A stretch of DNA of 62,229 bases from Myxococcota bacterium (GTDB lineage: Bacteria; Myxococcota; XYA12-FULL-58-9; JABJBS01), in the NCBI GenBank assembly GCA_036230545.1, contig JAZAIZ010000212.1:1-62229 (forward strand). The letters are read 5' to 3'. The translations under genes and the position numbers were made by a program. Below are positions 3,835 through 58,251 of the stretch, piece after piece. Position 1 is the first letter of the stretch. The number at the start of each line of letters is the position of its first letter. The notes under the pieces were generated by a model. It did no database searches. It worked only from the letters and a program-made list of their open reading frames with translations, and was not told the origin of the DNA.

Positions 3835-6067
3835 GATCGGCCTCCTTCCGGGCGTCGAATGCCTCCATTAAATCCTCCGGGAGCAGGGGAATCGTGTTCA
3901 CCGGCAGCCCCGTCGCGTGCTCCACCGCCGATAAGATAGCCGGGGCGGCACCATCCATGGGCAACTCGCCGATTCCCTTCGCTCCCCAAGGACCGTAGGG
4001 GTTGTCGCTCTCCTCAAAGAAGACGCGAATCGGCGGTAAATCAGCCGCCGTTGGCATGATGTAATTGGTCATTCGGTTGTTCAGCATATTGCCCTTATCC
4101 CAAACCACCTTCTCATAAATACCGTAGCCTATGGCCTGAGCCACTCCCCCCTCTATCTGACCCTCCGCCAGAGTCGGGTTGATCACCTTGCCCACCTCCT
4201 GCAAGGCCACAAAGTCATCCACCTGTGTCTCATAGGTGACCGTGTCCACGGTCACCTCCGCAACATACACAGCCCAGGCATAAGAAGCGTACGCGTCTCC
4301 CTCATAGGTGTCGTCATTCCACGTAATGTTGGGGGGCTGCTTGTACTGGCTCAGACTCTTCAACGCGCCATGCTCTCTGCGATAGGCTCCGACCGCGGCC
4401 TTAAACTCATCACGCGAGTACCCTTTCTTCAGGAGCCCGCTCTGCAGCAGGGTTTCTTTCAAGCCGATACACGCCGACTGCACCAGCTTGCCCACCACCA
4501 TCACCGTCCGTGAGGCCACTGTGGGACCACTGTCAGGGACCTCACGGGTGTCGGGCTGGCTGATCACAATATCATCGCACTCCACCCCGAGCGTCTCCGC
4601 TGCGATCTGAGAAAAAATCGTTCGGGTCCCTTGCCCAATCTCGGTGCTCGCCGCAAGCACCCGGACATTACCCTCGTCGGTGCCTTCGACCCCCGCGACG
4701 GACGCCAGGTGCACTTCACCCGAGCCCGTAAACCCCGCACCGTGTAGAAAACTCGCGAAGCCAATGCCCTTTTTGAAGCGCGCGTTAGGATCCTGAGTCG
4801 CGAACTCTGCGACCTTCTCGTGGTAGCCCGACTCCTTGAACGCGCGATCCAGCATCAGGTTCATATCCACCTGATCACGAACCACCTGCTTGGTGGCCAT
4901 GATGTCCCCCTCAGCGAGAAAATTGCGACGCCGCACTTCCTCCCGACTCATCCCAAGCTGCCTTGCAATGGCGTCAATGTGGCGCTCCAAAGCGAAGATG
5001 CTCTGGGGCGCTCCAAACCCTCGAAACGCTCCGTGCGGGGGGGTGTTGGTGGCATACGCCGCACTGGTTATTCTCACATTGGAACACCGGTAAGCCCCCA
5101 CCGCGTGAATCGTTCCCCGGGAGAGCACCACCGGAGAGAGCGTCATAAACGCTCCCCCGTCCAAGGCAAACTCGATGTCCATCGCCAAAATGGTTCCATC
5201 CTCGGCGACGGCGGTCTTATGCCGCGTCCACGAAGGGTGCCGTTTGGTCGTGGCCGCCATGTCCTCGGCTCGGTCGTAGATCAACTTAACGGTCTTTCCT
5301 GACTTCAAGGCCAGCAAAGCGGCGTGTCCTGCAATGATACTCGGATAATCTTCTTTGCCCCCAAAGCCTCCCCCGGTCTCCGCCTGAATAATCCGCACCT
5401 TCTCCGCGGGTAAATCCAACAGAGGCATCAGGGCTTTATGAATATAGTAGGGGCACTGCAGTGAGCCCCACAGAGTGACGCCTTCCTCAGAGTGCGCGAC
5501 GGCCATCATAGCGTTGGGTTCGATATAGAGCTGCTCCTGTGCGCCGGTCTCGTATTCGCCTTCAACAATATGAGCTGCGCTCTCCCAAACAGAGTCGACA
5601 TCCCCCTTCTGGACAAGAAAACGCTTAAAGACGTTGTCTTCACCCCAGATCACCTCACTGCACGCTCGGGAGTCTTCGATAGTGAAAACACCGGGCAGGG
5701 GATCTATCTCGACGCGAACGTTGCGCCGGGCCTCCTCCAGCAGGTGCTTGTCGGGATGCGCCAGCAACAAAATCGCCTGCTGCACATGGGCCACCTCCTT
5801 GTCCGCCAGAAAGGGCTGATCGGTGTCCAGACACGCCACATGATTCTCTCCGGGGATGTCCTTGGCGGAGACCACCACGATGTCATCCCAGGGGAGGTCC
5901 CCCTCAAAATGGATCGCTCGAATGTGTCCTCGAGGCACCTCACTCCGAACCGTCACCCCATACCAGCAGCCCTCTGGCTGGAGGTCATCGAGGTATTTCG
6001 CCTGACCGGTCAGTTTGGACTGCCCCTCCTTGCGCAGCTCGGACTTTCCAACTCTCGTGTGCTTCAT
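3827..6067 (-). CDS. Xanthine dehydrogenase / aldehyde oxidase family, molybdopterin-binding large subunit
   Basis: 746 aa. GKAKYLDD N-terminus, QAETGGGFGGKE, GFRGFGAPQ and a GAKGIGE-type C-terminal motif, all typical of the MoCo hydroxylase family. Confidence 0.9.
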   Translation of the reverse strand: MKHTRVGKSELRKEGQSKLTGQAKYLDDLQPEGCWYGVTVRSEVPRGHIRAIHFEGDLPWDDIVVVSAKDIPGENHVACLDTDQPFLADKEVAHVQQAILLLAHPDKHLLEEARRNVRVEIDPLPGVFTIEDSRACSEVIWGEDNVFKRFLVQKGDVDSVWESAAHIVEGEYETGAQEQLYIEPNAMMAVAHSEEGVTLWGSLQCPYYIHKALMPLLDLPAEKVRIIQAETGGGFGGKEDYPSIIAGHAALLALKSGKTVKLIYDRAEDMAATTKRHPSWTRHKTAVAEDGTILAMDIEFALDGGAFMTLSPVVLSRGTIHAVGAYRCSNVRITSAAYATNTPPHGAFRGFGAPQSIFALERHIDAIARQLGMSREEVRRRNFLAEGDIMATKQVVRDQVDMNLMLDRAFKESGYHEKVAEFATQDPNARFKKGIGFASFLHGAGFTGSGEVHLASVAGVEGTDEGNVRVLAASTEIGQGTRTIFSQIAAETLGVECDDIVISQPDTREVPDSGPTVASRTVMVVGKLVQSACIGLKETLLQSGLLKKGYSRDEFKAAVGAYRREHGALKSLSQYKQPPNITWNDDTYEGDAYASYAWAVYVAEVTVDTVTYETQVDDFVALQEVGKVINPTLAEGQIEGGVAQAIGYGIYEKVVWDKGNMLNNRMTNYIMPTAADLPPIRVFFEESDNPYGPWGAKGIGELPMDGAAPAILSAVEHATGLPVNTIPLLPEDLMEAFDARKEADHG

Positions 6068-30671: not shown

Positions 30672-31598
30672 ATGAGCCTGGAAGAAGCAGTACGCGACAA
30701 AATCACCGAGGCCATCGCCTCCAACTCCACCGTCCTTTTCATGAAGGGCAACCGCACCCAGCCCCAGTGTGGGTTTTCGGCCACGGTAATCCAAATTCTG
30801 GAGCAGCTCGGATGCGACTACAACACCGTCGACGTCCTCGCCGATGGTGAGATTCGCGAGGGCATCAAGGTCTTCTCCAATTGGCCCACCATTCCGCAAC
30901 TCTATATTGACGGCGAGTTCATCGGCGGCTGTGACATCGTCAAAGACATGCACGCCTCCGGCGACCTGGGCAAAAAGCTCCAGGTGGATATCAGCGGCCT
31001 CACCCCACCCGCTATCACCATTACCGACGCGGCGGCCCAGGCCCTGCAAAAAACCCTCGGTGACAGCGACGGGCAAGCCCTCCACCTTGACGTGGACGGA
31101 ACGTTCAACACCTCCCTGCAGCTTGAGCTGCCCTCCACCCAGAAGGTCACCGCCACCTCCAATGGCATCACCCTCTACATTCCTGCGGGCGCCATCAAAC
31201 GCGCTGAGGGGATGACCATCGACTTTCTCGACGGCCCCGAGGGCTCCGGATTTAAAATCGAGAACCCCAACGCCCCACCTCCGGTGCATCAAATGGAGGT
31301 CGGCGCGCTAAAGGAGCTGCTCAATGGCGACTCCAACCTGCGCCTGCTGGATTGCCGCACCCCTGAAGAGCGAGCCACCGCAAAGATTGAGGGCTCTATC
31401 CACCTCGACGAGGGCGCTGCCCGGGAGCTCACCGCCCTCGAGAAAGAGGCCATGCTGGTGTTTCACTGCCACCACGGCGGACGCAGCCAACGCGCGGCCG
31501 AATATTTTCGAGACCAGGGGTTTCGCAACGTCCACAACCTGGTGGGCGGCATCGATGCGTGGTCCCAGGAAATCGACTCCTCGGTACCCCGCTATTAA
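30672..31598 (+). CDS. Three-domain fusion: monothiol (CGFS) glutaredoxin, Cys-less A-type-carrier-like domain, rhodanese
   Basis: aa 1-105: FMKGNRTQPQCGFS ... WPTIPQLYIDGEFIGGCD (Grx4 type). aa ~112-201: ITITDAAAQALQKTL ... LHLDVDG ... GMTIDFLDGPEGSGFKIENPNA (IscA/HesB-like, lacking all three Cys). aa ~208-308: rhodanese with FHCHHGGRS active-site loop (Cys codon 31467-31469). Confidence 0.8.
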   Translation: MSLEEAVRDKITEAIASNSTVLFMKGNRTQPQCGFSATVIQILEQLGCDYNTVDVLADGEIREGIKVFSNWPTIPQLYIDGEFIGGCDIVKDMHASGDLGKKLQVDISGLTPPAITITDAAAQALQKTLGDSDGQALHLDVDGTFNTSLQLELPSTQKVTATSNGITLYIPAGAIKRAEGMTIDFLDGPEGSGFKIENPNAPPPVHQMEVGALKELLNGDSNLRLLDCRTPEERATAKIEGSIHLDEGAARELTALEKEAMLVFHCHHGGRSQRAAEYFRDQGFRNVHNLVGGIDAWSQEIDSSVPRY

Positions 31599-31685: not shown

Positions 31686-35322
<3,637 letters not shown>

Positions 35323-35333
<11 letters not shown>

Positions 35334-40922: not shown

Positions 40923-42260
40923 TCAGAGCTTCGAGATATAAAGAATCCCCAGGCACATCTCATCCTGGGTTCCGTCCCCCCAGGCTACATTCCGGGGCTC
41001 CACAGCCTGCCCATCAATCCGGTGCTGATTCTCCGCGCTGTTGTCCCAAGTGCAGCTCATATGCAGTTTATCCCCGGGGTTGAACACCACAGGCTCCCGA
41101 AATCCGTAGGCTCTTTGCCAATTGAAGTCCCAGCGCGGAATGTCCAAAAGGCAGGTCTCAGCGCCCTCGGACTCCACCCAAAGCCTGGTCTGCACCCCCA
41201 GCTCGTGCATGTGCAGGGATGCCCAATGAATGCGGAAGGACTCCCCTGGTCCAAAGAGACCTCCAGTCAAAGCGCCCAGGTAAAATCCCGGATTGGCAGC
41301 GTAGCTATGAGTAACAGACTTCTGTCCGGCCGGGATCAGCATGTTTTCCCCCACAAACCACTGAAAGTTGAGCCACAGCAGGATGGACGCTGGGTGCTCC
41401 ACCTCCGAATCCAGCCTCAATTCAATGGAGGTCTTATCGGGCTGAGGGGCGTTGTCGAGAACGTTATAGTGAACCTGGAGAACAATCCGAGCCCCCTTCT
41501 GAAGCTGAATCCCAGTGCCTTCGGGAAAATCTGCTCCCTCTCCCCCGGGCGCCCAGGCCCCCAACCACTGAAACGCCCCCCGAGATCCGGGCCCGCCAAA
41601 GCACTGGTACCCATCGCCCTCATCCGCCGCATCCTTCTCCTCAATGGTGCCCACTTGGTCTGGAGCAACTAGAAACGCGATCACGTGATGAACGATGCCT
41701 GGGTTTCCGGGCAACGCTCGAAATCCGGTCACATACCCCTCATTCTCACCGGCCTCCCAGTCCAAAAGAAAGCAGCGGTAGTCATCGGGGGAGTCGACGG
41801 GAGTGTAAGCATTCTTCATCGACAAGGTCACATCAGAACGACTCAATTTCACCTCGGTGGCCGGGTTATGAACGGGAGCTCCCTCCTCAAGAGGATCGCC
41901 CTCCGGCCCCCCTTGGTCTACCCAATCGGTCAGGGTTTTCTTCTCGGCTGCGGTGAGCGCACCGCTTCCCGTGTAATCGTTGCAGGCCTCATCCCCCAAC
42001 CACGGTGGCATCGTCCCTCGCTTGACCTCCACCGCGATCGCTTCACGCAACGCATACGCGTCGTCATAAGAAGCGAAAGTGAATGGCGCGACGCCACCGG
42101 TAACGTGACAAGTGTTGCACTTCGAATCCAGAATCGGTTTGGCGTGCTGGTAATAATACACCGCCTCAACAGACTCGGTGTCCGAGTCACATCCCACACT
42201 CAAAACCACCAACAGAGTCAGGAGCAGCGCTCCCCCTAAGGTTTTTCTTATACTATTCAT
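40923..42260 (-). CDS. Lipoprotein with an N-terminal CxxCH segment and a copper type-II ascorbate-dependent monooxygenase (PHM/DBH)-like two-domain core
   Basis: Lipobox LSVGC. CNTCH at 42105-42119. GIVHHVIAF, QVHYN, LHMHELG and DEMCLGILY match the HH..H / HxH..M copper-ligand pattern of PHM/DBH. The ORF-track start at 42263 is GTG; an ATG follows at 42260. Confidence 0.6.
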   Translation of the reverse strand: MNSIRKTLGGALLLTLLVVLSVGCDSDTESVEAVYYYQHAKPILDSKCNTCHVTGGVAPFTFASYDDAYALREAIAVEVKRGTMPPWLGDEACNDYTGSGALTAAEKKTLTDWVDQGGPEGDPLEEGAPVHNPATEVKLSRSDVTLSMKNAYTPVDSPDDYRCFLLDWEAGENEGYVTGFRALPGNPGIVHHVIAFLVAPDQVGTIEEKDAADEGDGYQCFGGPGSRGAFQWLGAWAPGGEGADFPEGTGIQLQKGARIVLQVHYNVLDNAPQPDKTSIELRLDSEVEHPASILLWLNFQWFVGENMLIPAGQKSVTHSYAANPGFYLGALTGGLFGPGESFRIHWASLHMHELGVQTRLWVESEGAETCLLDIPRWDFNWQRAYGFREPVVFNPGDKLHMSCTWDNSAENQHRIDGQAVEPRNVAWGDGTQDEMCLGILYISKL

Positions 42261-42455
42261 CACGGCACCCCTTCGCTATTACAAGAAGAATCACAGGTAC
42301 CATCGCTCTCAGCCACTCGTTAGTCAACGGGCTTTTCATGCTTCTCTTTTCACATCTCTCTCCGCGTAGAAACAAATTCACGTTCTCATGCACCCGCGAA
42401 ATATAAAGCCACAGACGACCGGTACTTAAACCTTGTGCCGCAATCCTCAAGGCCT

Positions 42456-45523: not shown

Positions 45524-46309
45524 TTACATCCGCTTCTGGCCTTTGGCTACGATGGCTTTATCGTAGTACTCAGCAGAGGCGAGGCCACTTTCTTTGGCTT
45601 TCTTCAGCTCCTCATCGATGAGCTTCTGAAAAGCGGGAAAAGGCTGTGCGCCGCTCAAGAAACGACCATTAATAAAGAAGGCGGGAGTTCCCCGAGCACC
45701 CAGAGAAACCGCAGTCTTCTGGTCTTTCAGGATCTGCTCCTTGTACTTGTTCGCTTTGTAGCACGCCTTATATCGCGTCATGTCCAGCTCCACTTTCTTC
45801 GCATACCCCTCAAGGTCTGCGTCTTCCAGCGAACGGTAGTTTTCGAACATAACATCGTGCATAGCCCAGAATTTGCCCTGCTCATTGGCGCACATGGACG
45901 CGTTGGCTGCGTGCATGGCCCGCTTATGAAAACCCAAAGGATTGTGCTTGAAGATCACGCGAACGTCTTTAGGATACTTCTCGGTGATCTGCTTGATGGT
46001 GGGCCCCACCCGCTTGCAATAGGGGCATTGGAAATCCGAGATCTCCATAATGGTGACCAGGGCGTCCTTGGGACCGAGAACCGGAGACTTCTCCACCGGA
46101 AAAGCGTAAGTCTTCTGCGGATCGGGACCACGAGGCCGTTGAGGCTTGGCCGCGGCCGCAGCCGCAGCAGGGCGCTTGGCGATAGCGTCCAATTTAGTCA
46201 AAATCTCCTTCTGGGTAGCTTTAATTTCATCCAGATCGGCTTTGGATGCGCAGCTAATCGCGAACACTCCAACCAAAATGAGCGGCAACCGTGTCATGTA
46301 CCATTTCAT
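45524..46309 (-). CDS. DsbA-family thiol:disulfide oxidoreductase lipoprotein (CPYC active site)
   Basis: Lipobox FAISC. Thioredoxin-fold SDFQCPYCKR (Cys codon 46025-46027) ... GTPAFFINGR. GGAGG lies before ATG 46309. Confidence 0.8.
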   Translation of the reverse strand: MKWYMTRLPLILVGVFAISCASKADLDEIKATQKEILTKLDAIAKRPAAAAAAAKPQRPRGPDPQKTYAFPVEKSPVLGPKDALVTIMEISDFQCPYCKRVGPTIKQITEKYPKDVRVIFKHNPLGFHKRAMHAANASMCANEQGKFWAMHDVMFENYRSLEDADLEGYAKKVELDMTRYKACYKANKYKEQILKDQKTAVSLGARGTPAFFINGRFLSGAQPFPAFQKLIDEELKKAKESGLASAEYYDKAIVAKGQKRM

Positions 46310-46428: not shown

Positions 46429-46467
46429 AAAAAAAAAGAGCCCGGTGGGATTAATCCCACCGGGCTC
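46429..46467 (-). terminator. Rho-independent terminator for the TGA-containing DsbA-like gene
   Basis: On the minus strand: GAGCCCGGTGGGA-TTAA-TCCCACCGGGCTC followed by T9, 25 nt after the stop at 46492. Confidence 0.75.
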
Positions 46468-46491
46468 TTCAAACATCGGCATGAAGACCTG

Positions 46492-47292
46492 TTACATCTT
46501 CTTTTGGCCTTTTCCTACAATCGCTTTGTTGTAGTAGTCTGCCTTGGCGATGCCGCTCTCTTTGGCTTTCTTCAGCTCTTCATCAATGAGCTTCTGAAAC
46601 GCCGGAAAGGGCTGCGCGCCACTCAGGAAGCGACCGTTAATGAAGAACGCAGGGGTTCCTCGGGCGCCCAGACTGGCGGCGGTGCGCTGGTCTTTCAGGA
46701 TCTGATCCTTATATTTGTTCGCCTTATAGCAAGCGCTGTAGCGCCCCATGTCCAATCCAACCTTTTGGGCGTAGCCTTCAAGATCCTTGTCCTCAAGCTG
46801 ACGCATGTTTTCGAAAATGGTATCATGCATTTCCCAGAACTTGCCTTGCTCGTCGGCGCACATGGACGCGTTGGCTGCAGGCATCGCGCGGTTGTGAAAA
46901 CCGAGCGGGTTGTGCTTGAAGACGATGCGAACGTCGTTAGAGTACTTCTCAGAGATTTGCTTGAGAGTCGGACCGACTCTCTTACAGTAGGGTCATTGGA
47001 AGTCCGACACTTCTATGATCGTCACCAACGCGTCCTTAGCTCCCTTGGAAGGAGACTTCTCAACAGGAAACGCGTAGGTCTTCTGTGGATCTGGCCCACG
47101 AGGCCGTTGGGGTTTTGCTGCTGCCGCTGCGGGGCGTTTTGCAATCGCCTCCAACTTTGTCAGCATCTGCTTTTGTGCTGCTGTAATTTGCTTTTGAGTC
47201 GCCTTAATCTCATCCAGATCGGCTTTTGACACGCAGCTAATCGCCGCGATACCGATCACAATGAGAGACAAGCGACCTACGATCGTCTTCAT
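46492..47292 (-). CDS. DsbA-family lipoprotein paralogue with an in-frame TGA at the first active-site Cys position (U/stop-PYC): candidate selenoprotein, alternatively a recent nonsense pseudogene
   Basis: ORF-track fragments 46993..47334 and 46492..46884 share one frame, interrupted only by TGA at 46993-46995 (codon 100). Read-through gives 266 aa collinear with the neighbouring paralogue (SDFQ-TGA-PYCKRVGPT versus SDFQCPYCKRVGPT). Lipobox AAISC. GGAGG lies before ATG 47292. Confidence 0.55.
46963..46981 (-). promoter_or_regulatory. Candidate bacterial SECIS hairpin (recoding element)
   Basis: The minus-strand RNA GAGAGUCGG-U-CCGACUCUC starts 11 nt after the UGA. It gives a 7-8 bp stem with an apical GGUC(C) loop. 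Confidence 0.4.
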
Positions 47293-47411
47293 CAGTGAAC
47301 CTCCAGTGAAAAAATAGCTAAAACGAGTGACCACTCTACCACCGTCTACTCCCTACAATCAATCCGCGAGCAGGGCTTTAAGCATCCGGATCGGCGTAGT
47401 ATAGACTGGTC

Positions 47412-49200: not shown

Positions 49201-52200
49201 TTAAAATGAAGCGCTGGTTGCCGAAGCCTCATTTAATGGAAGCAGCACCCTGGCGATAACCCGGTCGTCCTCCATCTCCACCTCAATGGTAGGCTCTCCG
49301 GCGCAACGCCTGATGGCCTCCTCCCGGGCCTCACCGCGCTGAGTGACGCTCCATCGCCCCGCCTCCTCGGTGACCTCCAGCTCCCGAAAATCGATCCGGG
49401 CCCCAATGCCCAGGCCCTTAAGGTAAGCTTCTTTAATCGCCCAGAAGGCGGTCAGCAGCGCGTCCTTGTTGGAGGCCCTCCGGACCTGATCCAGCTCGGC
49501 CTCGCTAAAATAATCCCGCTCAAAGGACGTGTCCCGTGACTCAATCTGCTCGACGTCAATCCCCGGACGCTGGTTCTTCTCCAGCGACTGAAACGCCATC
49601 GCCACCCCCGCGCTGTGGGAGATGGAGACCCGAAGGGGCTCGGAGGCCTCCCCCGCGACCCTCACCTGGGGCGCCCCAAGGTCGTCTGGCAAAATGGTGA
49701 TCGCCCCATAGGGAACAATCGCGCCCTCCCGCGCGAAGCGCTCCTCTCGAATCAAGCGCTTAGCCACTATCCGGCCCGCCAACCACTCGAGACGACGTTT
49801 GGGGGTCTTGAGCCCCTCAAAACGTGGAATCTCCTTCTCGGAGAGATAACGCCGAAGAGTCCCCGACGGATCGGCCTCAAGCATCCCCTCCACTTCCGAG
49901 AGCTCCAAGGCGCTCCATGGGGCCCCGTCCCCGGAGCCGCGGGCCGGCTCAAAGCGATCCTCGGGGGGGAGCCTGTGAAGCGTCTCAGTACGATAGCCCA
50001 GCATTTGGTCGAAGCAGCGGCCATCCTCATCGCAGGTCCAGATATCAAAAACAGCGTCAGCGCCGCCGCCCTCCCTCAATCGCACCAGAGTCCGAAGCCC
50101 CCCCTCAGGCGCAGGCTCCGGGCTCAGTAGAATTCGGTCAACCCCCGCCGGCAGGGCCATCCTGCCAAGCTCAGCCATCTCCCATAATCCAGCGGCCTGA
50201 AAACCCACCTCTCGAAGAAAGGGAGATGTCTCAAACTCCCCGTGCCCGTGCTCCCCCAGCCAGGGGGAGCGGCGCTCCACCGGAGACACCTCGACGCCGT
50301 CTTCACCCAACACCGAAACCGCATCCAGCACCTGAAACACCGGACCGTCAAAATCGCGACGGTAGATGTCCTCCCGCGAGATTTGAGGATCCCGAGGCAG
50401 CTCCAGCCCTCGAGCCACGGGGGACTCCAGGGGCACACGTGCACCACCGCACGCCTCGGCGAAGAAGTGCTCCCGACGAAGGCGTTTCCCACTCGGTTTG
50501 GTGAAATAAGAGACGAGGACCGTCTCAAAACGAGAATCCTCCAAGCGCTTCACCTCCACTGAGATCTCCAGTGGTCGATCTTCAAACAACTTAACCGGGA
50601 GCGCGAAACGCACCTCCCGCAGCTCCGCGATGGGCTCTCCTGCAAAATGCGACGCCGCCCCGGCCATCAACTCCACCCCCAACACCCCCGGAAACACCGG
50701 GGTCCCCTCGAGACGATGGTGGTCGAGCCCCAAATCCTGGGCAGGATCAAGCCGGCGAAAATAACACGCCCCCTCACCCTGGCGTTCCCAAGCGTCAAAC
50801 AACCATGGCAGCGGCTCTCCTTCCTGATAAAGGCGTGGAGCCTCCTGCTCGGGGGCCGCAAAATGCCCGAGGGCCCCCGCCACCACCACGTCTCCGGAAC
50901 ACCCCGACGCCGCCAGGGACGCCCCCAGCGCGGCCCCTGTGGCAGCAGGAAGAAGATCTACCCCGGTAGATTCCAACACCTGCTGCACAGAGCCTCGAGT
51001 GGCCATCCCTACGTCTCCCCACGCAGTCCAATTGAGGTTAAGAATGTTGCGTTTCTCAGATCGAGACAAAGCCCCCATCAACTCCTTGGCAGCGGCGTAA
51101 TCGACCTGAGCGCCGTTGCCAAAGCGACCAGCCACCGAACCCATGGTCACCATGCGCTCGGGCCTGAGAGCAAACCATAGCGTCAGCGCCGCGCTCGCCT
51201 TGGGAGCAAACACCCGTTGAAACGCCACCATATCCTTGTCGTGAAGAAACTTCGACTCCTCAAGCCCCGCACCGTGGAGCAGCAGCGCTACACTCCCGAA
51301 GCGCCCGCTGATCTCCCCGGCCACTGCGGACAAAGCCTCCTGGTCGACCACATCACAGGGGAAAACCTCCACCTCGCAACCAAGGCTCCGAAGCGTCGCG
51401 ATGTTTTCGGCCACCTCCAGTCGACGCTCCTCCTTTTCGACCCACTCCCTGAGGGCCACGGGAGTGACCCGGCCCTCGGAGTCGCTCAAGGCCTCCCGCG
51501 CAATCTCCTTGCGCTGCGCCGCGTCTTTACCATGAATGGGGCTCTCCGCAGGAGTAACCCCGAGGGTTCGGGCAACCAGCGCCACACGCAAAGGTCCCTG
51601 GCTGGCGATGTGCTTTAAGAGCTCAAAGGTGACTCCCCGCGTACCACCGGTGACCACCACCGCGGCGCCGGGATCAAGGGTCCACTCTGGCTCCTCCACC
51701 ACAGCGACCCGTTGCAACGCCACGCGCGCTCCCTTCCACCAGGCCAACTCCACCGGTCCCTCCGAAAGCCACTCGCTGAGCGCGAGAGCTGCAGACTGCC
51801 GTGGTTCGTCGCTGATGTCATCGAGGTCAAAGGCACGACAATGAGCCCCCTCCCACTCTTTCGCCAGACTCTTGGCGATCCCACCGAGGGCCCCAAGGGT
51901 CACACCGCTCACGCCCTCCTCCCCAAAGCCGAACGCGCCCGGGCTGCTCCCGGCCAGCAGAAGTCCCGCTCCCCGCATCTCTCCCCGCACCCTTACAAAG
52001 GCCCGGGCCAGCTCAAAGGTCCGCTCAACGTGCCCACGAATCGAGTCGGGGGTGTCCGTCTGCGCGACGTTCACCAAAGAAACCAGATCATCAGGAGCTC
52101 GCTCCCCGAGATGCTGCATAAACGCCTCAAGTGCCTCTCCACTCAGAGCATCGTCCACTTCGACCACCCTCGCCTCCCGAGCGCTCAACTCCTCCCTGAA

Positions 52201-55200
52201 CGCAGCGCGAAGCGCCAAATCCCCTCCAGCCAGAAGAACCAGGCGTCCCTGCAGCGAGCGACGCTCGCCGGCGGAGGGCTCCGCGTACACGGTCCCCACC
52301 CGCTGCACAGTGAAGCGGCTCCCAACCTCCGGAAACCCACCCGGCGACGCCACGGGGTTAAGAGAGGTATCGCTGCTCAACGGCGCAGGGTTCGCCCCCT
52401 CCGCAGCAAACGAAGCGTTGGCGAGCACATAATCCGCCAAGGCGTTGAGGCTTTGCACATCTGCCAGCTTAAAGTTCTCCGTCTGGGGCAGACCAAAACG
52501 CTCTCGAATGACCGCCAGAATCTCAGCCTGTTTAACAGTGTCGATGCCCAGATCTTCTTCCAAGCCATAATCCGGCTCCAGCTCTTCCACATCGTAGCCG
52601 GTCTGCTCAGCGAAGAGCAGTTGAAGCTCGGTGATAAGACCGGAGCGCTCAGGAACCACACCCCCCTCCCCATTCACTTCGTCTGGGTCCTCCTGCCCTA
52701 ACGCAGGGGCCTCACCTGAAATGGTTGCGGGAGTGCCCCCGGTCTGACTCACAACATAGTCCACCACCGCGTTCAGGGTCTGCACCTCGGAGAGTTTAAA
52801 GTCCTCGTCGGAGGCCATCCCATAGCGGGTGCGCAGGAGCGAGAAGATCTCCGCCTGCTTGACGGTGTCAATGCCGAGGTCTGCCTCCAGTTCATAGCCA
52901 GGATCCAACTCCTCCGGTTCATAGCCGGTCTGCTCCGCGAAGAGATTCACCACCTCCTTGAGGAGATCCGCCCGTGAAGGCAGGTTTCCCTCCTCCTCCA
53001 TCGGGGCGGGCGCGGGCACATCGTGATCAATAAAGCTGGCCACATAGTCTGCCACCGCGCGGATCGTCTGTACCTCCGAGAGTTTGAACGACTCGTCGGT
53101 AGGCATTCCGTAGCGCTCCCGCAGCAGGGAGAAGATCTCCGCCTGCTTGACGGTGTCCACGCCAAGGTCTGCCTCCAATTGATAATCCGGCTCCAGCTCT
53201 TCAGGCTCGTAACCAGTCTGCTCCGCGAAGAGACGTTGAATCTCCTCCATCAGGTTCGCTCCCATCCCACTTGGAGCCTGCGCAACGACGGTGTGAGGCT
53301 CAGAGGCCGCCACCAGCGCCTCGGCTCGCTCGATGAGAGGACCTGCGCTAAGGGATAGGGAAGGCACACTCAATTCACTCACCCGCGCGCCCCCCTTCTC
53401 GGCGACCCGCAGGGTTCGTTTAACGATCTCAAGGCCGGCATCCTCCCGACCACATAAGCTATCTAACCAGGCGTGATAGCGCTCTGCCGACTGGAGGCGG
53501 GCCTCCTCCACCGCACGACGCCGATAGGCCACCATTGCAATCTGCGAACCAAAGCCAGCCGCGAATCGAATCGCGATTTCACGATCGATGGGGCTACCAT
53601 CCGCAAAGAGCAGATCTGCAAAGGCAGGGTCGACCTCCCTTAGATTCGCCACGGCCGGCAGCACCTGTCGCTGCAATCCCTTGAGAGACACCACATCTTC
53701 GAGGGTCGCTCCCATGGGGTGGCCGGTGTATCCTTTGGTGTTGGCGATCAGCACCCGAGCCCCGTGCTCGCCAAAAGCATTTTGAATGGCCTCCATCTCC
53801 GCTTGAGAGCTGCCACCCCGAGCCGGGGTGTAGGTTTCATGGGACATGAAAAAGCTTTTGTCGGCCAGGGTTCCAAGATCGTAGCCGGTTTTAACCTGCA
53901 CCTCTTCAACAAACTCGCTAAACACCTCCGAGATGACCCCACCGTCGAGGCGGGTCCCATGAAACGCACTGTTGGAAAAATGGCTGGCGACCACGTCGGC
54001 AATCCCCTGCATGCCTCTCTCTTCAACCAACGCCTCTCTCTCCAGCACAAAGCCCGAAGCCCCGGCCCCGAGAATCATCCCGTTGCGTTTCGCGCCAAAG
54101 GGCACCGCAGCATCCTCGACCTCCGACTCCACCGTAGCGGCTCCGGTTGCGAGAAAGCCCGAACCAATCCAAGGCAGGGTTGTGGCGCTGGTAACATCAT
54201 CTGCGGTCACCACCACCACCCGGTCACAGCGCCCGAGCCTGATCCAATCTGCAGCAACACCGATAGCCTGCCCCCCGGAGGCACACGCGGCGTTCACCGC
54301 GGTGTTGGGTCCTTTCGCGCCGATGGTCTGAGCCAGCTGGGCGTGGCCCATGGACAGAACCCAAAACAAAAACTTTCGATTAAAGCGATACCGGTCTCCT
54401 TCTCGCTCCAGCTCGTCGATGGTCGGCTGAAAATGGTCCGTCAGCCTCTTCACCTCCTCCGGATCTCCCATCTCAAACGCAAGGGAAGTCACCAGCGTGC
54501 GCAGTTCCTCCGCGGTTCGCCCAGCGTGGCTTGAGGCGGCCTGTCGGGAGACGTCGTCAATGAGCCTGTCGATTCCAGGAAACGCGCTTGCGAAGATCAC
54601 CCCCGTGCGTTTCGCCAAAGGCTCGGGCAAAGCCCAGCGGTCGGGCAGCTGCCGGCCGGTGGAGGTCTTTCGATATTTCCGCACCAGGGGCAACCCGGCG
54701 TCCCGCAATGCGTCAACGCCCGCGGCGATGGCGAGACGACTCGCCGTATCGAGGGCATCCACAAAGCCGCTGTCGAGGCCGTAGTCTCCCACCAGATCGA
54801 TGTCCCCGAGCCGACCCGCCAATTGAATCACCTCACCAAGCTCCTGAAGCTTCTCAAACTCGCCGGTGGTCTTGTTCAAACGCAGGACGTTCTTGTGCAC
54901 GATCTCCTGCCGAGCATCGGCCTGAATCGGCTTGATGAAATTCTCGCCCGCAAGAATCGGCCCAAACGAATCTTCACTCAACTCCCCCACGGGGTTCACG
55001 GTTGGCAGCATCACCGACATTCCGCTGACGCTCAGGGTCTCCTCCGCCTGCGAAGGCGCCGGTGTTGACGTCGGGGCTGGGGACACAGCTTCGTCCCGCA
55101 GCACGGGAATCTCAGCGCTCCTGTCAAATTGCACCGGGAGCCCGGCGGCAGCGAGGGCAGCGAGAGCGTCCATCAGGCACTCGTTCCCGGTCTTTTTGTG

Positions 55201-58200
55201 ATGGTTCGTCGCGACTGCATAATGGGGCCGCTTGCCGAGGATATTCCGCACAAAACCCGTGATAGCGCGACGTGGTCCCACCTCCACAAAAGTCCTGACG
55301 CCCTCCTGATAGAGCCGCTCCACCTGCCCGATGAACTCCACCGGCGACTCCAACTGCCTGGCCAAAAGCGTCACCACTTCATCCACACTCTCGGGATAGG
55401 GCTTGGCGTCGACGTTGGACAGAATGGGACACGTGGGCACCCGAATGTCGAGCCCACCGAGAACACGCGCCAAAGGCTTCGCCGCGGGCGCCACGATCTC
55501 GCTGTGAAAAGCATGAGACACCGGAATATGCCGCGCGTCGATCTTGAACTCCCCAAACCTTTCAACGGCGCTATCCACTGCATCGCTCGCTCCGGCGATC
55601 ACCGTCTGGGAGCTGCAGTTCTTGTTTGCCGCGATCACATACCCCTCGACGGTCTGCAAGATCTCCTCCACCCGCTCAGAGTCTGCTGCGACGGTGGCCA
55701 TTTTTCCGTTGTCCTCCACCTTGACCCCGGCCATCTCCCGACCGCGGGCGCTCACCGCGTAGAGGGCATCCGCGAAGGTCAGCACCCCCGCCGCCACGCA
55801 GGCCGCATACTCTCCAAGAGAGTGCCCCACGACAAAATCGGGGCGCACACCAAAAGACTGCAGGAGCCGCATCATGGCCACATCCGCGGTCAACATCGCC
55901 GGCTGGCAAATCTCGGTCTGCTTCAATCGCTCCGCCGCCTCGGGAGAGTCTGGAGCCAGATCCGAGGGCCACACGGTTTCCGTCAGGGTGCCCTCGATCA
56001 GCGGCCTGAGGATATCATCCGCCTCCCGAAAAGTCTGCTCCACCACCGGATAAGTCCCGGCAAGATCTTGAAACATGTTGATGTATTGGGAGCCCTGGCC
56101 AGGAAAGAGGAAGGCCACCTTGGAGTCGGAAGGGGCCGCCTCATCGAGATAAATCCCTTGAGCGGTGAGCGCCCGTTGCCGGCGTCGCTCCGCATCGACA
56201 GCTTTGGTCTGTGCCTGCTTAAGATCTGCGGCTGCGAAAGCCAATCGTACGGGCGCTTTGATGGCCACGTCCCGCGTAGCCACCAGCTGACTTGAGAAGC
56301 CACTGGCATCATTCAAGGTCTGTTGCGCTGTCTTCAGCACCGCCTCCCGAGAGTCTGCGCCAAACACAAACACCGCGGGACTCTCCAGGGGCTCACCTGC
56401 GGCCTCCTCCGCATCGTCGGGTGCCCTCCGGGTTGCGGCCACGTAGTCCACCACGGCGTTGAGGGTCTGAACATCGGCCAGGCGAAAGCTCTCATCGCGG
56501 ACCATTCCGTAACGCTCGCGGAGCACTCCAAAAATCTCAGCCTGCTTCACCGTGTCGATGCCAAGGTCTTGCTCAAGCTCATAACCCGGATCAAGCTCCT
56601 CAAGGTCATAGCCGGTGGTGTCAGCGAAGAGTTGTGTAACCTCCTGCAGCAATTGATCGCGATTCATGTCAACTCCGTGGGAAGGGCCGCGACCGGGCGC
56701 GACGGGGGGAATAGATTGTGGAGAGGGAGCCACCGGAGCAGTTGGAGGAATGGACTCCTCCAAGAGAGGCCCCCTCCCACTCTCTTCGAGGACCACATGA
56801 AAATTGGTGCCCCCAAAGCCAAAGGCGCTGACTCCCGCGCGGCGAGGAAGGCCGGTCTCTTCCCAGGGACGAGCGGTCTGAATCACCGACAGAAACCCCT
56901 GGTGCAGGGGCGACTCCCTGGTGGGCGAGTGAACGTTGGCGCTGGGGGGAAGGGTCTTGTGATGCAGCGCAAGGGCAGTCTTGATGAGAGCCGCCGCGCC
57001 GGCCGCGCTCTTGAGGTGGCCGATCATGGACTTGACCGAGCCAATGGGTGTTTTGGCCGGCGCCACCCCCGACTCCTGAATATAGTCCGAGAGCACCTGC
57101 AGCTCGGTCCCGTCCCCAACCACGGTGGACGTGCCATGGGCTTCAAAGAGCCCCACAGACTCCACGGGCACCCCACAAGACTGGTAGGCCCGCTCAATGG
57201 CGGCGCGCTGTCCACGGGGATTGGGAGCGGTCATCCCCTTACCCCGTCCGTCGCTGGCGGTGCCGACACCCCGAATCACAGCATACACCCGGTCACCGTC
57301 CCGCAAGGCGTCGGGCAGGCGCTTGAGGATCAACACCCCCGCTCCTTCCCCCATCACAAAACCGTTGGCCCGAGCGTCAAAGGGGGCGCTGTGCTCCGCG
57401 GAGAGGGCACCAATCTTTGAAAACTTCGCGTAGGTAGGAGGATCCATAGACCGGTCCACTCCACCGCTGATGGCCAAATCGTACTCCCCAAGCCTCAATC
57501 CCTGCACCGCGGTGTTCACCGCCGCCAGAGAGGCCGCGCAGGCTGCATCGGTGGTGTAATTGGGGCCCCGCAGGTCAAAGGTGTTGGCGATGCGTCCGGT
57601 GATGCAGTTGGAGAGTTCCCCGGGCATGGAGTCTTCGGTGACCTTTGGCAGCCGGGACTTAAAACGCGCCTCGATGTCCTGCAAGAGTTCCTCTTTGCCC
57701 GTGTCGGGGAGATGCTTCAGGGCGCCACTCTTTTCGAGAGCGTCCACCATGGACGGGTACCAGACGCGCAGACTGGTCAAGTCTTCAAACTCGCCCCCCA
57801 TGGCGTTACCCATGATCACAGCGGTCCTCTCGCGGTCAAAGGCACGGCCCTCCACCCCACGCCCGGCGAAGACCTCGAGGCCGGCATCTTCAAGGGCGTC
57901 AGCCACCGCGGTCAGGGCGATCTTTTGAATGTCGTCCACGGACTCCAGGGTACGAGGCGGAATGCGGAAACGTTTTTTGTCGAAGCGAACTTCATCGATA
58001 AACCCACCGATTCGAGAGTAGGTTCGGTCCGGCGCGCTGCGATCCTCCGACCAATAGAGTCGAGGCTCCCACCGGGACTCGGGGACCTCTTTAATCGCCA
58101 CATGCCCGCGACAGATATTCTCCCAAAAAGACGGAACATCCCCCGCGTCGGGAAAGCATCCCCCCATCCCGATAATTGCAACCCCAACGTCTCGTTCAGC

Positions 58201-58251
58201 ATCGTATCGACTCGTCACGCTCTCACTCCAACCCATACGGTGAGCCGTCAT
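49201..58251 (-). CDS. Iterative type I polyketide / PUFA-synthase-like megasynthase, 3016 aa: KS-CP-AT-KS-CP-CP-CP-KR-DH-PPTase
   Basis: Single uninterrupted frame.
- KS1: DAACASSLAAV, HGTSTVVGD, GHLKSAAG.
- AT: FPGQGSQY, GHSLGEY, SHAFHS.
- KS2: NAACASGG, SHETYT, GHPMGA.
- Four carrier-like domains: DLG(I/V)DTVKQAEI.
- KR: VVTGGTRG, YAAAK.
- DH: HHRLEGTPVFP (HxxxGxxxxP).
- PPTase: GIDVEQI, FWAIKEAYLKGLG. Confidence 0.9.
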   Translation of the reverse strand: MTAHRMGWSESVTSRYDAERDVGVAIIGMGGCFPDAGDVPSFWENICRGHVAIKEVPESRWEPRLYWSEDRSAPDRTYSRIGGFIDEVRFDKKRFRIPPRTLESVDDIQKIALTAVADALEDAGLEVFAGRGVEGRAFDRERTAVIMGNAMGGEFEDLTSLRVWYPSMVDALEKSGALKHLPDTGKEELLQDIEARFKSRLPKVTEDSMPGELSNCITGRIANTFDLRGPNYTTDAACAASLAAVNTAVQGLRLGEYDLAISGGVDRSMDPPTYAKFSKIGALSAEHSAPFDARANGFVMGEGAGVLILKRLPDALRDGDRVYAVIRGVGTASDGRGKGMTAPNPRGQRAAIERAYQSCGVPVESVGLFEAHGTSTVVGDGTELQVLSDYIQESGVAPAKTPIGSVKSMIGHLKSAAGAAALIKTALALHHKTLPPSANVHSPTRESPLHQGFLSVIQTARPWEETGLPRRAGVSAFGFGGTNFHVVLEESGRGPLLEESIPPTAPVAPSPQSIPPVAPGRGPSHGVDMNRDQLLQEVTQLFADTTGYDLEELDPGYELEQDLGIDTVKQAEIFGVLRERYGMVRDESFRLADVQTLNAVVDYVAATRRAPDDAEEAAGEPLESPAVFVFGADSREAVLKTAQQTLNDASGFSSQLVATRDVAIKAPVRLAFAAADLKQAQTKAVDAERRRQRALTAQGIYLDEAAPSDSKVAFLFPGQGSQYINMFQDLAGTYPVVEQTFREADDILRPLIEGTLTETVWPSDLAPDSPEAAERLKQTEICQPAMLTADVAMMRLLQSFGVRPDFVVGHSLGEYAACVAAGVLTFADALYAVSARGREMAGVKVEDNGKMATVAADSERVEEILQTVEGYVIAANKNCSSQTVIAGASDAVDSAVERFGEFKIDARHIPVSHAFHSEIVAPAAKPLARVLGGLDIRVPTCPILSNVDAKPYPESVDEVVTLLARQLESPVEFIGQVERLYQEGVRTFVEVGPRRAITGFVRNILGKRPHYAVATNHHKKTGNECLMDALAALAAAGLPVQFDRSAEIPVLRDEAVSPAPTSTPAPSQAEETLSVSGMSVMLPTVNPVGELSEDSFGPILAGENFIKPIQADARQEIVHKNVLRLNKTTGEFEKLQELGEVIQLAGRLGDIDLVGDYGLDSGFVDALDTASRLAIAAGVDALRDAGLPLVRKYRKTSTGRQLPDRWALPEPLAKRTGVIFASAFPGIDRLIDDVSRQAASSHAGRTAEELRTLVTSLAFEMGDPEEVKRLTDHFQPTIDELEREGDRYRFNRKFLFWVLSMGHAQLAQTIGAKGPNTAVNAACASGGQAIGVAADWIRLGRCDRVVVVTADDVTSATTLPWIGSGFLATGAATVESEVEDAAVPFGAKRNGMILGAGASGFVLEREALVEERGMQGIADVVASHFSNSAFHGTRLDGGVISEVFSEFVEEVQVKTGYDLGTLADKSFFMSHETYTPARGGSSQAEMEAIQNAFGEHGARVLIANTKGYTGHPMGATLEDVVSLKGLQRQVLPAVANLREVDPAFADLLFADGSPIDREIAIRFAAGFGSQIAMVAYRRRAVEEARLQSAERYHAWLDSLCGREDAGLEIVKRTLRVAEKGGARVSELSVPSLSLSAGPLIERAEALVAASEPHTVVAQAPSGMGANLMEEIQRLFAEQTGYEPEELEPDYQLEADLGVDTVKQAEIFSLLRERYGMPTDESFKLSEVQTIRAVADYVASFIDHDVPAPAPMEEEGNLPSRADLLKEVVNLFAEQTGYEPEELDPGYELEADLGIDTVKQAEIFSLLRTRYGMASDEDFKLSEVQTLNAVVDYVVSQTGGTPATISGEAPALGQEDPDEVNGEGGVVPERSGLITELQLLFAEQTGYDVEELEPDYGLEEDLGIDTVKQAEILAVIRERFGLPQTENFKLADVQSLNALADYVLANASFAAEGANPAPLSSDTSLNPVASPGGFPEVGSRFTVQRVGTVYAEPSAGERRSLQGRLVLLAGGDLALRAAFREELSAREARVVEVDDALSGEALEAFMQHLGERAPDDLVSLVNVAQTDTPDSIRGHVERTFELARAFVRVRGEMRGAGLLLAGSSPGAFGFGEEGVSGVTLGALGGIAKSLAKEWEGAHCRAFDLDDISDEPRQSAALALSEWLSEGPVELAWWKGARVALQRVAVVEEPEWTLDPGAAVVVTGGTRGVTFELLKHIASQGPLRVALVARTLGVTPAESPIHGKDAAQRKEIAREALSDSEGRVTPVALREWVEKEERRLEVAENIATLRSLGCEVEVFPCDVVDQEALSAVAGEISGRFGSVALLLHGAGLEESKFLHDKDMVAFQRVFAPKASAALTLWFALRPERMVTMGSVAGRFGNGAQVDYAAAKELMGALSRSEKRNILNLNWTAWGDVGMATRGSVQQVLESTGVDLLPAATGAALGASLAASGCSGDVVVAGALGHFAAPEQEAPRLYQEGEPLPWLFDAWERQGEGACYFRRLDPAQDLGLDHHRLEGTPVFPGVLGVELMAGAASHFAGEPIAELREVRFALPVKLFEDRPLEISVEVKRLEDSRFETVLVSYFTKPSGKRLRREHFFAEACGGARVPLESPVARGLELPRDPQISREDIYRRDFDGPVFQVLDAVSVLGEDGVEVSPVERRSPWLGEHGHGEFETSPFLREVGFQAAGLWEMAELGRMALPAGVDRILLSPEPAPEGGLRTLVRLREGGGADAVFDIWTCDEDGRCFDQMLGYRTETLHRLPPEDRFEPARGSGDGAPWSALELSEVEGMLEADPSGTLRRYLSEKEIPRFEGLKTPKRRLEWLAGRIVAKRLIREERFAREGAIVPYGAITILPDDLGAPQVRVAGEASEPLRVSISHSAGVAMAFQSLEKNQRPGIDVEQIESRDTSFERDYFSEAELDQVRRASNKDALLTAFWAIKEAYLKGLGIGARIDFRELEVTEEAGRWSVTQRGEAREEAIRRCAGEPTIEVEMEDDRVIARVLLPLNEASATSASF
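49204..49890 (-). other. PKS domain: C-terminal 4'-phosphopantetheinyl transferase (approximate bounds)
   Basis: LAGRIVAKR, VSISHSAGVAMA, GIDVEQI and FWAIKEAYLKGLG match PPTase (Sfp/EntD superfamily) motifs. Confidence 0.7.
49960..50820 (-). other. PKS domain: PKS-type double-hotdog dehydratase (approximate bounds)
   Basis: LDHHRLEGTPVFPGVLGVELM (HxxxGxxxxP) followed by about 250 aa of hotdog-like sequence. Confidence 0.65.
50930..52330 (-). other. PKS domain: ketoreductase with N-terminal structural subdomain (approximate bounds)
   Basis: AVVVTGGTRGVTFEL Rossmann motif, ...HGAGL..., VDYAAAKE catalytic Tyr-xxx-Lys. Confidence 0.75.
52417..53260 (-). repeat. Tandem triplicated carrier-domain repeat (periods 288 and 327 nt) inside the PKS gene
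   Basis: Three consecutive copies of ...LFAEQTGY(E/D)xEEL(E/D)P(D/G)Y.LE.DLG(I/V)DTVKQAEI..., with long near-identical nucleotide stretches. Thr codons at 53152-53154, 52864-52866 and 52537-52539. Confidence 0.85.
53620..55035 (-). other. PKS domain: ketosynthase 2 (FabF-like, Cys-His-His retained; approximate bounds)
   Basis: LSVSGMSVMLP ... ALDTASRLAIAAGVDALRDAGL ... VNAACASGGQA ... MSHETYTP ... KGYTGHPMGA. Confidence 0.75.
55140..56120 (-). other. PKS domain: acyltransferase (malonyl-CoA:ACP transacylase type; approximate bounds)
   Basis: VAFLFPGQGSQY, VVGHSLGEYAA, PVSHAFHS. Confidence 0.8.
56431..56655 (-). other. PKS domain: carrier-protein-like domain 1, Thr567 at the canonical Ser position (approximate bounds)
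   Basis: LLQEVTQLFADTTGYDLEELDPGYELEQDLGIDTVKQAEIFGVLRERYGM. Thr codon ACG at 56551-56553. Confidence 0.7.
56783..58191 (-). other. PKS domain: ketosynthase 1 (approximate bounds)
   Basis: VAIIGMGGCFP ... DAACASSL ... HGTSTVVGD ... GHLKSAAG ... GFGGTNFHVVLEE. Confidence 0.8.

Follow-up and report, generated by a model that had tools for sequence, protein, structure and literature searches.

Two short minus-strand reading frames in the stretch of DNA analysed here (62,229 nucleotides, hereafter the window) very probably make up a single gene, which encodes a DsbA-like thiol:disulfide oxidoreductase lipoprotein with selenocysteine (Sec) at its active site. The fragments of the open reading frame list, 46993..47334 and 46492..46884, lie in one frame, and translation across them gives a gene of 266 codons whose sole interruption is a TGA at codon 100. 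The TGA is conserved among relatives, the sequence downstream of it is maintained as protein-coding, and the hairpin that follows it is maintained as RNA. Insertion of Sec at codon 100 is what these properties of the sequence would predict.

That the locus holds one gene and not two had been proposed in an earlier note on this DNA, and the translation agrees: read through codon 100, the product runs to 266 aa with no further stop, and around the TGA the frame is open for 119 codons upstream and 166 downstream. The note had also described a gene free of other lesions, equipped with its own lipobox, Shine-Dalgarno sequence, start and terminator, and collinear with a neighbouring paralogue to which it looked roughly 80% identical. 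Each of these elements was found (the lipobox as a lipobox-like motif), and the identity to the collinear paralogue came to 82.6% over 259 aligned residues; the coordinates given in the note all proved right. The protein matches the Pfam families Thioredoxin_4 (E-value 4.5e-27) and DSBA (1.5e-25), its two domain scores of 95.7 and 90.5 bits lying far above the gathering cutoffs of 23.2 and 25.6 (PF01323, PF13462), and it has both the U-P-Y-C motif and the cis-proline loop (...RGTPAFF...). Its signal peptide ends in AISC, and the product is accordingly a predicted exported lipoprotein. Gene callers split the gene into products of 99 and 123 aa, public records list it just as the 99-aa fragment (in NCBI nr) and a C-terminal fragment, and a search of the protein collection for a sequence identical to the read-through product, with X for residue 100, found no entry. 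The coordinates of all features are collected in Table 1.

Table 1. Features of the proposed Sec gene and of its tandem Cys paralogue in the window
Feature	Position	Strand	Basis or remark
Complete selenoprotein gene (proposed), DsbA-like lipoprotein, U-P-Y-C redox motif	46492..47292	-	Translation, Pfam, NCBIfam, purifying selection
Start codon ATG	47292	-	GGAGG 7 nt upstream, about 47300-47304
UGA codon 100, proposed Sec codon	46993..46995	-	Same alignment column as the leading CxxC cysteine of Cys homologues
Stop codon TAA	46494..46492	-	Translation
Lipoprotein signal peptide (predicted), MKTIVGRLSLIVIGIAAIS/C	47230..47292	-	Lipobox assigned by inspection
SECIS-like hairpin, GAGAGUCG-GUC-CGACUCUC	46963..46981	-	Fold, fdhF register, codon constraint, covariation
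Intrinsic terminator of the Sec gene, 16-bp stem and T-run	46435..46470	-	Follows the gene
Tandem Cys paralogue, CPYC, 261 aa	45524..46309	-	Decayed 5-bp hairpin remnant at 46012..45998

A TGA at this position is by no means peculiar to the window. As is typical of bacterial selenoproteins, the UGA falls where homologues have a cysteine (in 266 Cys homologues, the leading one of CxxC) and is conserved in orthologues. The closest relative, from a TARA Oceans MAG (L001), is 82% identical and has the same TGA and an identical hairpin. The earlier note had suggested tabulating TGA against TGC or TGT among relatives, and the tabulation came out in favour of TGA: among homologues on other contigs, TGA is present in the three closest ones (L001/L122 with 85% domain identity, L145 and L112 with 62%), and the adjacent paralogue (84%) is the only Cys form above about 60% domain identity. 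Scanning 185,579 species-representative genomes for the pattern D-F-Q-TGA-P-[FY]-C returned at least 120 stretches, and about 113 of the 120 listed are DsbA-like ORFs open on either side of the TGA; about 70 matches to the pattern would be expected by chance across the whole collection. The same-position TGA occurs in more than 110 DsbA-like genes from Myxococcota, Acidobacteriota, Planctomycetota, Chloroflexota, Desulfobacterota and other groups. A second scan, keyed on the hairpin tip GUCGGUCCGAC, yielded 128 distinct genes, every one of them open on both sides of the TGA (128/128); the sets of about 113 and 128 genes overlap.

Multidomain proteins were also encountered. A Myxococcota MAG (L326, JBBTFH010000117) has four DsbA-like domains in one frame, spaced about 654 nt apart, with in-frame UGAs at about 4470, 5127, 5781 and 6432 (gene orientation), each accompanied by the GUCGGUCCGAC hairpin; its product is a candidate four-selenocysteine polyprotein. 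In L018 (Baikal-deep-G131), a four-domain protein has the order U-C-C-U.

The hairpin of the Sec gene begins exactly 11 nt after the UGA, as the earlier note had described, and consists of an 8-bp stem and a GUC loop. Counted from the U of UGA, it spans nt 15-33, and the loop nucleotide G23 lies 20 nt after the UGA. According to the published description of bacterial SECIS elements (PMC4605307), the stem measures 6-8 bp and a conserved G sits in the loop some 20 nt past the UGA; the stem found here, directly 3' of the UGA, and the position of its loop G agree with both. The 64-nt context of the hairpin folds at -15.2 kcal/mol (z = -1.8). An Rfam scan of the hairpin gave no match to a SECIS family at E-values up to 10, a weak negative for an in-frame element this short. 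The resemblance to the SECIS of E. coli fdhF that the earlier note had pointed out is exact in its register; the fdhF sequence was confirmed by BLAST, with 5,426 E. coli genomes as the database. The two hairpins both leave 11 nt between the UGA and their first nucleotide (nt 15) and both present a G22-G23-U24-C25 apex in the same register (GGUC at nt 22-25). Unlike fdhF, the window hairpin has no bulged U17, an absence that had been noticed before; moreover, most members have a GUC triloop as their apex, with G22-C26 as the closing pair, and the stem sequences are unrelated. In two RVGPL variants (L120 and L143), the stem is shifted by one position and GGUC forms a true tetraloop at the same place. 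By analogy with fdhF, we regard the window hairpin as a putative SelB-binding element.

The codons of this peptide are prone to self-complementarity, a caveat raised in the earlier note, and for shorter stems the caveat stands: given the peptide KRVGPTL, the codon usage of the window and this register, a stem of at least 6 bp would arise by chance with a probability of 0.16. For the full 8-bp stem, by contrast, the probability is only 0.0105. This figure, together with Sec-specific codons and frozen synonymous sites, led us to reject the hairpin as a mere codon artefact. The seven hairpin codons K-R-V-G-P-T-L are identical between the window gene and L001, whereas the flanking codons have changed synonymously (with codons elsewhere identical at 41% of conserved residues, P = 0.002). 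Over the same seven codons, the Cys paralogue differs from the Sec gene at about 6 of 6.2 synonymous sites. It retains a weaker, 5-bp version of the hairpin in the same register, much as previously described. The trio of Sec gene, orthologue and Cys paralogue represents an unusually clean case of RNA-level selection overlaid on a coding sequence. Among 28 xVGPT Sec genes, collected without any hairpin constraint, all 28 use GUC for Val, GGU for Gly and CCG for Pro, and 22/26 use the rare AGR codons (AGA/AGG) for Arg. Nine RVGPT Cys genes, on the other hand, have mixed codons, encode Arg by CGN only and never by AGR, and form stems of 1-6 bp; the difference in codon choice between Sec and Cys genes gave Fisher p values from 3e-4 to 3e-6.

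Covariation is a second mark of selection on the RNA, and the compensatory changes that the earlier note had proposed looking for are indeed present. In the first unbiased set (n=30), 93% of cells pair and three stem pairs show double changes; the covariation score was reached by none of 500 shuffles (0/500), and registers slid along the alignment scored far lower. The search that produced the 128-gene set left the four outer stem pairs free. In this set, pair (18,30) is paired in 128/128 genes (GC 97, AU 16, GU 14, CG 1) and pair (17,31) is GC in 115, AU in 8 and CG in 2, while the next two column pairs outward, which served as a control, show no consistent pairing. Some of these stem-pair changes alter the protein, from R to K or A and from L to F or V.

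Hairpins of 4-6 bp in the SECIS register were also observed in Cys DsbA genes encoding RVGPT: in L003 (6136), L015 (6591), L017 (6775), L079 (1284) and the paralogue of the window (45998..46012). The same GUC loop is found in one of these 'fossil' hairpins. Their presence fits either descent from Sec ancestors or codon-driven self-complementarity.

Decoding of UGA as Sec would require dedicated machinery, and searches of the 62-kb window and of the organism's other reachable contigs turned up neither selA, selB or selD nor tRNA-Sec; tRNA and Rfam scans of the window likewise found nothing. Past the window's ends, a look-up yielded just contigs of at most 3 kb from marine metagenomes, TARA among them. 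When E. coli SelA, SelB and SelD were compared by tblastn with the window and about 380 fetched loci, two weak matches emerged, one to the SelB GTPase domain in L117 (25% identity) and one SelD-like in L161 (30%), neither of them decisive. We infer that the source organism has the capacity to decode Sec; the frozen hairpin in the window lineage points to a SelB that reads it. In an Acidobacteriota MAG (L292, CAVVHA010000005), a two-domain DsbA gene (Cys and Sec), which has the same hairpin as the window gene, is followed after 225 nt by a tRNA-Sec gene (5037..5134). ARAGORN assigns this tRNA a UCA anticodon, and its Rfam RF01852 score is 75 bits against a threshold of 47. This arrangement suggests that selC is genomically linked with the DsbA-like selenoprotein family. 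Could the UGA be recoded, but as something other than Sec? Near-cognate read-through stimulated by the SECIS might place Trp or Cys at codon 100, or a tRNA-Sec-like tRNA might deliver Cys or Ser, and Sec as residue 100 is a prediction from sequence. Nevertheless, the position is that of the nucleophilic Cys of CxxC, a classic site of Sec; the hairpin geometry and GGUC apex match those of SelB-binding elements; a canonical tRNA-Sec (UCA) adjoins a gene carrying this hairpin in the Acidobacteriota MAG; and UxxC selenoproteins of DsbA-like and DsbG-like type form established families (PMC1088965, PMC13188914). We therefore consider recoding to a residue other than Sec very unlikely.

Alternatively, the gene might be a pseudogene, that is, a redundant tandem DsbA duplicate in which a nonsense mutation turned the TGC of the active-site Cys into TGA, with the hairpin as a by-product of RVGPT codons. 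An intact Cys paralogue adjoins the Sec gene, TGC and TGA differ by one base, stems of 4-6 bp commonly arise from RVGPT codons in Cys genes, and both the gene callers and the NCBI record show a truncated product of 99 aa. However, the comparison with L001 tells a different story. From the TGA to the nearest ATG downstream, a stretch of 43 codons, the two genes differ by 26 synonymous (Sd) and 4 non-synonymous (Nd) changes, corresponding to pS 0.90 and pN 0.04. Such a ratio means that the stretch is translated, and were the UGA to terminate, these 43 codons would be untranslated; this excludes both the pseudogene and the two-gene readings. Downstream of the TGA, pN is 0.04-0.11 and pS 0.90-0.94, and purifying selection acts on either side of the TGA, so that an in-frame UGA is flanked on both sides by conserved coding sequence, as in bacterial selenoproteins generally; synonymous sites between the two genes are saturated (pS 0.72-0.94). 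The degeneration that the earlier note had named as a sign against a functional gene is therefore not seen (pN 0.04 vs pS 0.90 downstream). Furthermore, the same TGA is found in L001, which is 82% identical and lacks a Cys paralogue at its locus, and in more than 110 other genes; the strong purifying selection on the downstream codons (pN/pS about 0.04) comes with zero further lesions across 266 codons; and the synonymous sites of the hairpin are frozen in TGA genes only. The comparative data effectively refute the pseudogene reading, and we give it hardly any probability.

A sequencing or assembly error, or a code in which UGA specifies a standard amino acid (code 4 or 25), has a negligible probability: the source sequences are metagenome assemblies, but the same TGA recurs in five assemblies from different samples with SNPs elsewhere, TGA ends many other genes of the window, and it aligns here with Cys and not with Trp or Gly. 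Specifically, the locus is present on metagenome contigs from six samples, five of which include the Sec gene, and the TGA and hairpin are kept in 5/5 independent assemblies covering the gene; related scaffolds are available in ENA under ERZ23495038. TGA terminates 15/45 long ORFs of the window, and therefore the organism uses the standard genetic code; codes 4 and 25 were ruled out, TGA being a normal stop in the window. In one assembly (L084), codon 153 of the Sec gene reads TGT in place of TGG (W153C) within the conserved KFWEMHD motif; either an assembly error or a rare variant could account for it.

Scanning the window for further TGA-split ORFs gave 52 candidates; on inspection, the DsbA gene alone has a Cys-type redox motif at its TGA, and the remainder resembled out-of-frame stretches or adjacent genes in a common frame. 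Thirty other ORFs of the window are housekeeping genes. A single 3016-aa ORF (49201..58251, minus strand) has a PfaA-like polyketide/PUFA synthase architecture: Pfam matches (PP-binding, KR, PS-DH, ACPS) cover the C-terminal 1194 aa only, and the N-terminal KS-like and AT-like parts, like the roughly five tandem ACP repeats, were recognised by eye in the translation. Metagenome callers truncate this ORF to 1194 aa and place genes of the opposite strand on the remainder. Two unusual redox fusions are encoded on the plus strand downstream of a SUF operon and MoaA, one of glutaredoxin, HesB/IscA-like and rhodanese domains (30672..31598, 308 aa) and one of a DUF255 thioredoxin-like domain with an aldo/keto reductase (31686..35333, 1215 aa). 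Between SMC and PntA lies a homologue of copper type II ascorbate-dependent monooxygenases (40923..42263, minus strand; Pfam Cu2_monooxygen, gene table of L080). Such homologues are uncommon in bacteria.

Thioredoxin-fold selenoproteins with a UxxC motif and pairs of Sec and Cys paralogues are textbook features of bacterial selenoproteomes. The precedent invoked in the earlier note is accordingly well documented for this very fold: DsbA-like UxxC selenoproteins were described in 2005 from 9 Sargasso Sea sequences (PMC1088965) and listed again in 2006, for example from Anaeromyxobacter dehalogenans (PMC1794560), and a 2026 review refers to NF041057 as a 'DsbG-like' UxxC selenoprotein (PMC13188914). 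With these DsbA-like and DsbG-like selenoproteins the window protein shares the DSBA/Thioredoxin_4 thioredoxin fold, a lipoprotein signal peptide, (proposed) Sec at the N-terminal position of CxxC, widespread Cys homologues and a SECIS inside the coding region just past the UGA. Its best NCBIfam match is in fact NF041057, the 'Rcas_1661 family thioredoxin-like (seleno)lipoprotein' (E-value 9.3e-37). Membership in that family was rejected, since the window protein scores 126.9 bits and thus stays below the curated cutoff of 190. The other Sec-DsbA subfamilies that were scored against NF041057 reached 67.8-161.5 bits, all below the same cutoff. The RVGPTL/GUCGGUCCGAC subfamily is, as far as profile scores tell, a sister group to NF041057, and we found no curated model covering RVGPTL, which fits the annotation of the window gene as a 99-aa fragment. 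Among solved structures, the best matches are 4pwo, 7unn, 6nen, 4gxz and 3eu3, representing the ScsC/MdbA/BdbD-type DsbA family (E-values between 1.5e-22 and 5e-10, for an aligned region of about residues 80-244). Shared features are a CPxC motif and a G-T-P loop with the cis-proline; all of these solved relatives have Cys, whereas the window protein has a proposed Sec.

How did the two neighbouring genes come about? Around the active site, the paralogue reads ...SDFQ-C-PYCKRVGPT... and the Sec gene ...SDFQ-TGA-PYCKRVGPT..., the paralogue codon being TGC. In the window, both genes lie between RsmD and PntB; the corresponding locus of L001 has the order RsmD-CoaD, Sec gene, PntB, and the Cys copy is absent. 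Most likely, the Cys paralogue is a lineage-specific tandem duplicate in which TGA changed to TGC and the hairpin then decayed to 5 bp. On this simplest history, the change would have run from Sec to Cys.

If the Sec gene is expressed according to the E. coli/Moorella paradigm, SelB-GTP carrying Sec-tRNA(Sec) would bind the hairpin 11 nt past UGA-100, whose 8-bp stem would present G23 and U24 in the GGUC apex. In competition with RF2, SelB would place Sec at the UGA, giving the 266-aa protein with its U-P-Y-C redox centre. By virtue of its signal peptide and lipobox, the product would enter the Sec translocon and then the lipoprotein pathway and so reach the periplasmic side, where a selenenylsulfide/selenol couple would stand in for the usual disulfide in thiol-disulfide exchange. 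The Cys duplicate would leave the cell with a selenium-independent isoform. More tentatively, the Sec/Cys pair might constitute a selenium-responsive envelope isoenzyme switch, a proposal put forward together with the observations that each gene has its own terminator and that the Cys copy is a recent lineage-specific duplicate. In the same speculative vein, and on a broader scale, RVGPTL might be a case of an RNA element dictating a protein motif. In at least five phyla, the SECIS may fix both the R-V-G-P-T-L peptide and the codons that encode it; it may leave 'fossil' hairpins in Cys descendants, and it may recur as many as four times within one poly-DsbA protein, as in L326 with its four in-frame UGAs.

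In terms of biology, the window gene adds little that is new in kind, as UxxC thioredoxin-fold selenoproteins are already known. Its practical value lies in annotation: more than a hundred related genes of species representatives have the same in-frame TGA that splits the window gene in annotation. With a model built for the RVGPTL subfamily, a widespread envelope selenoprotein of Myxococcota, Acidobacteriota, Planctomycetota and their neighbours would be recovered.
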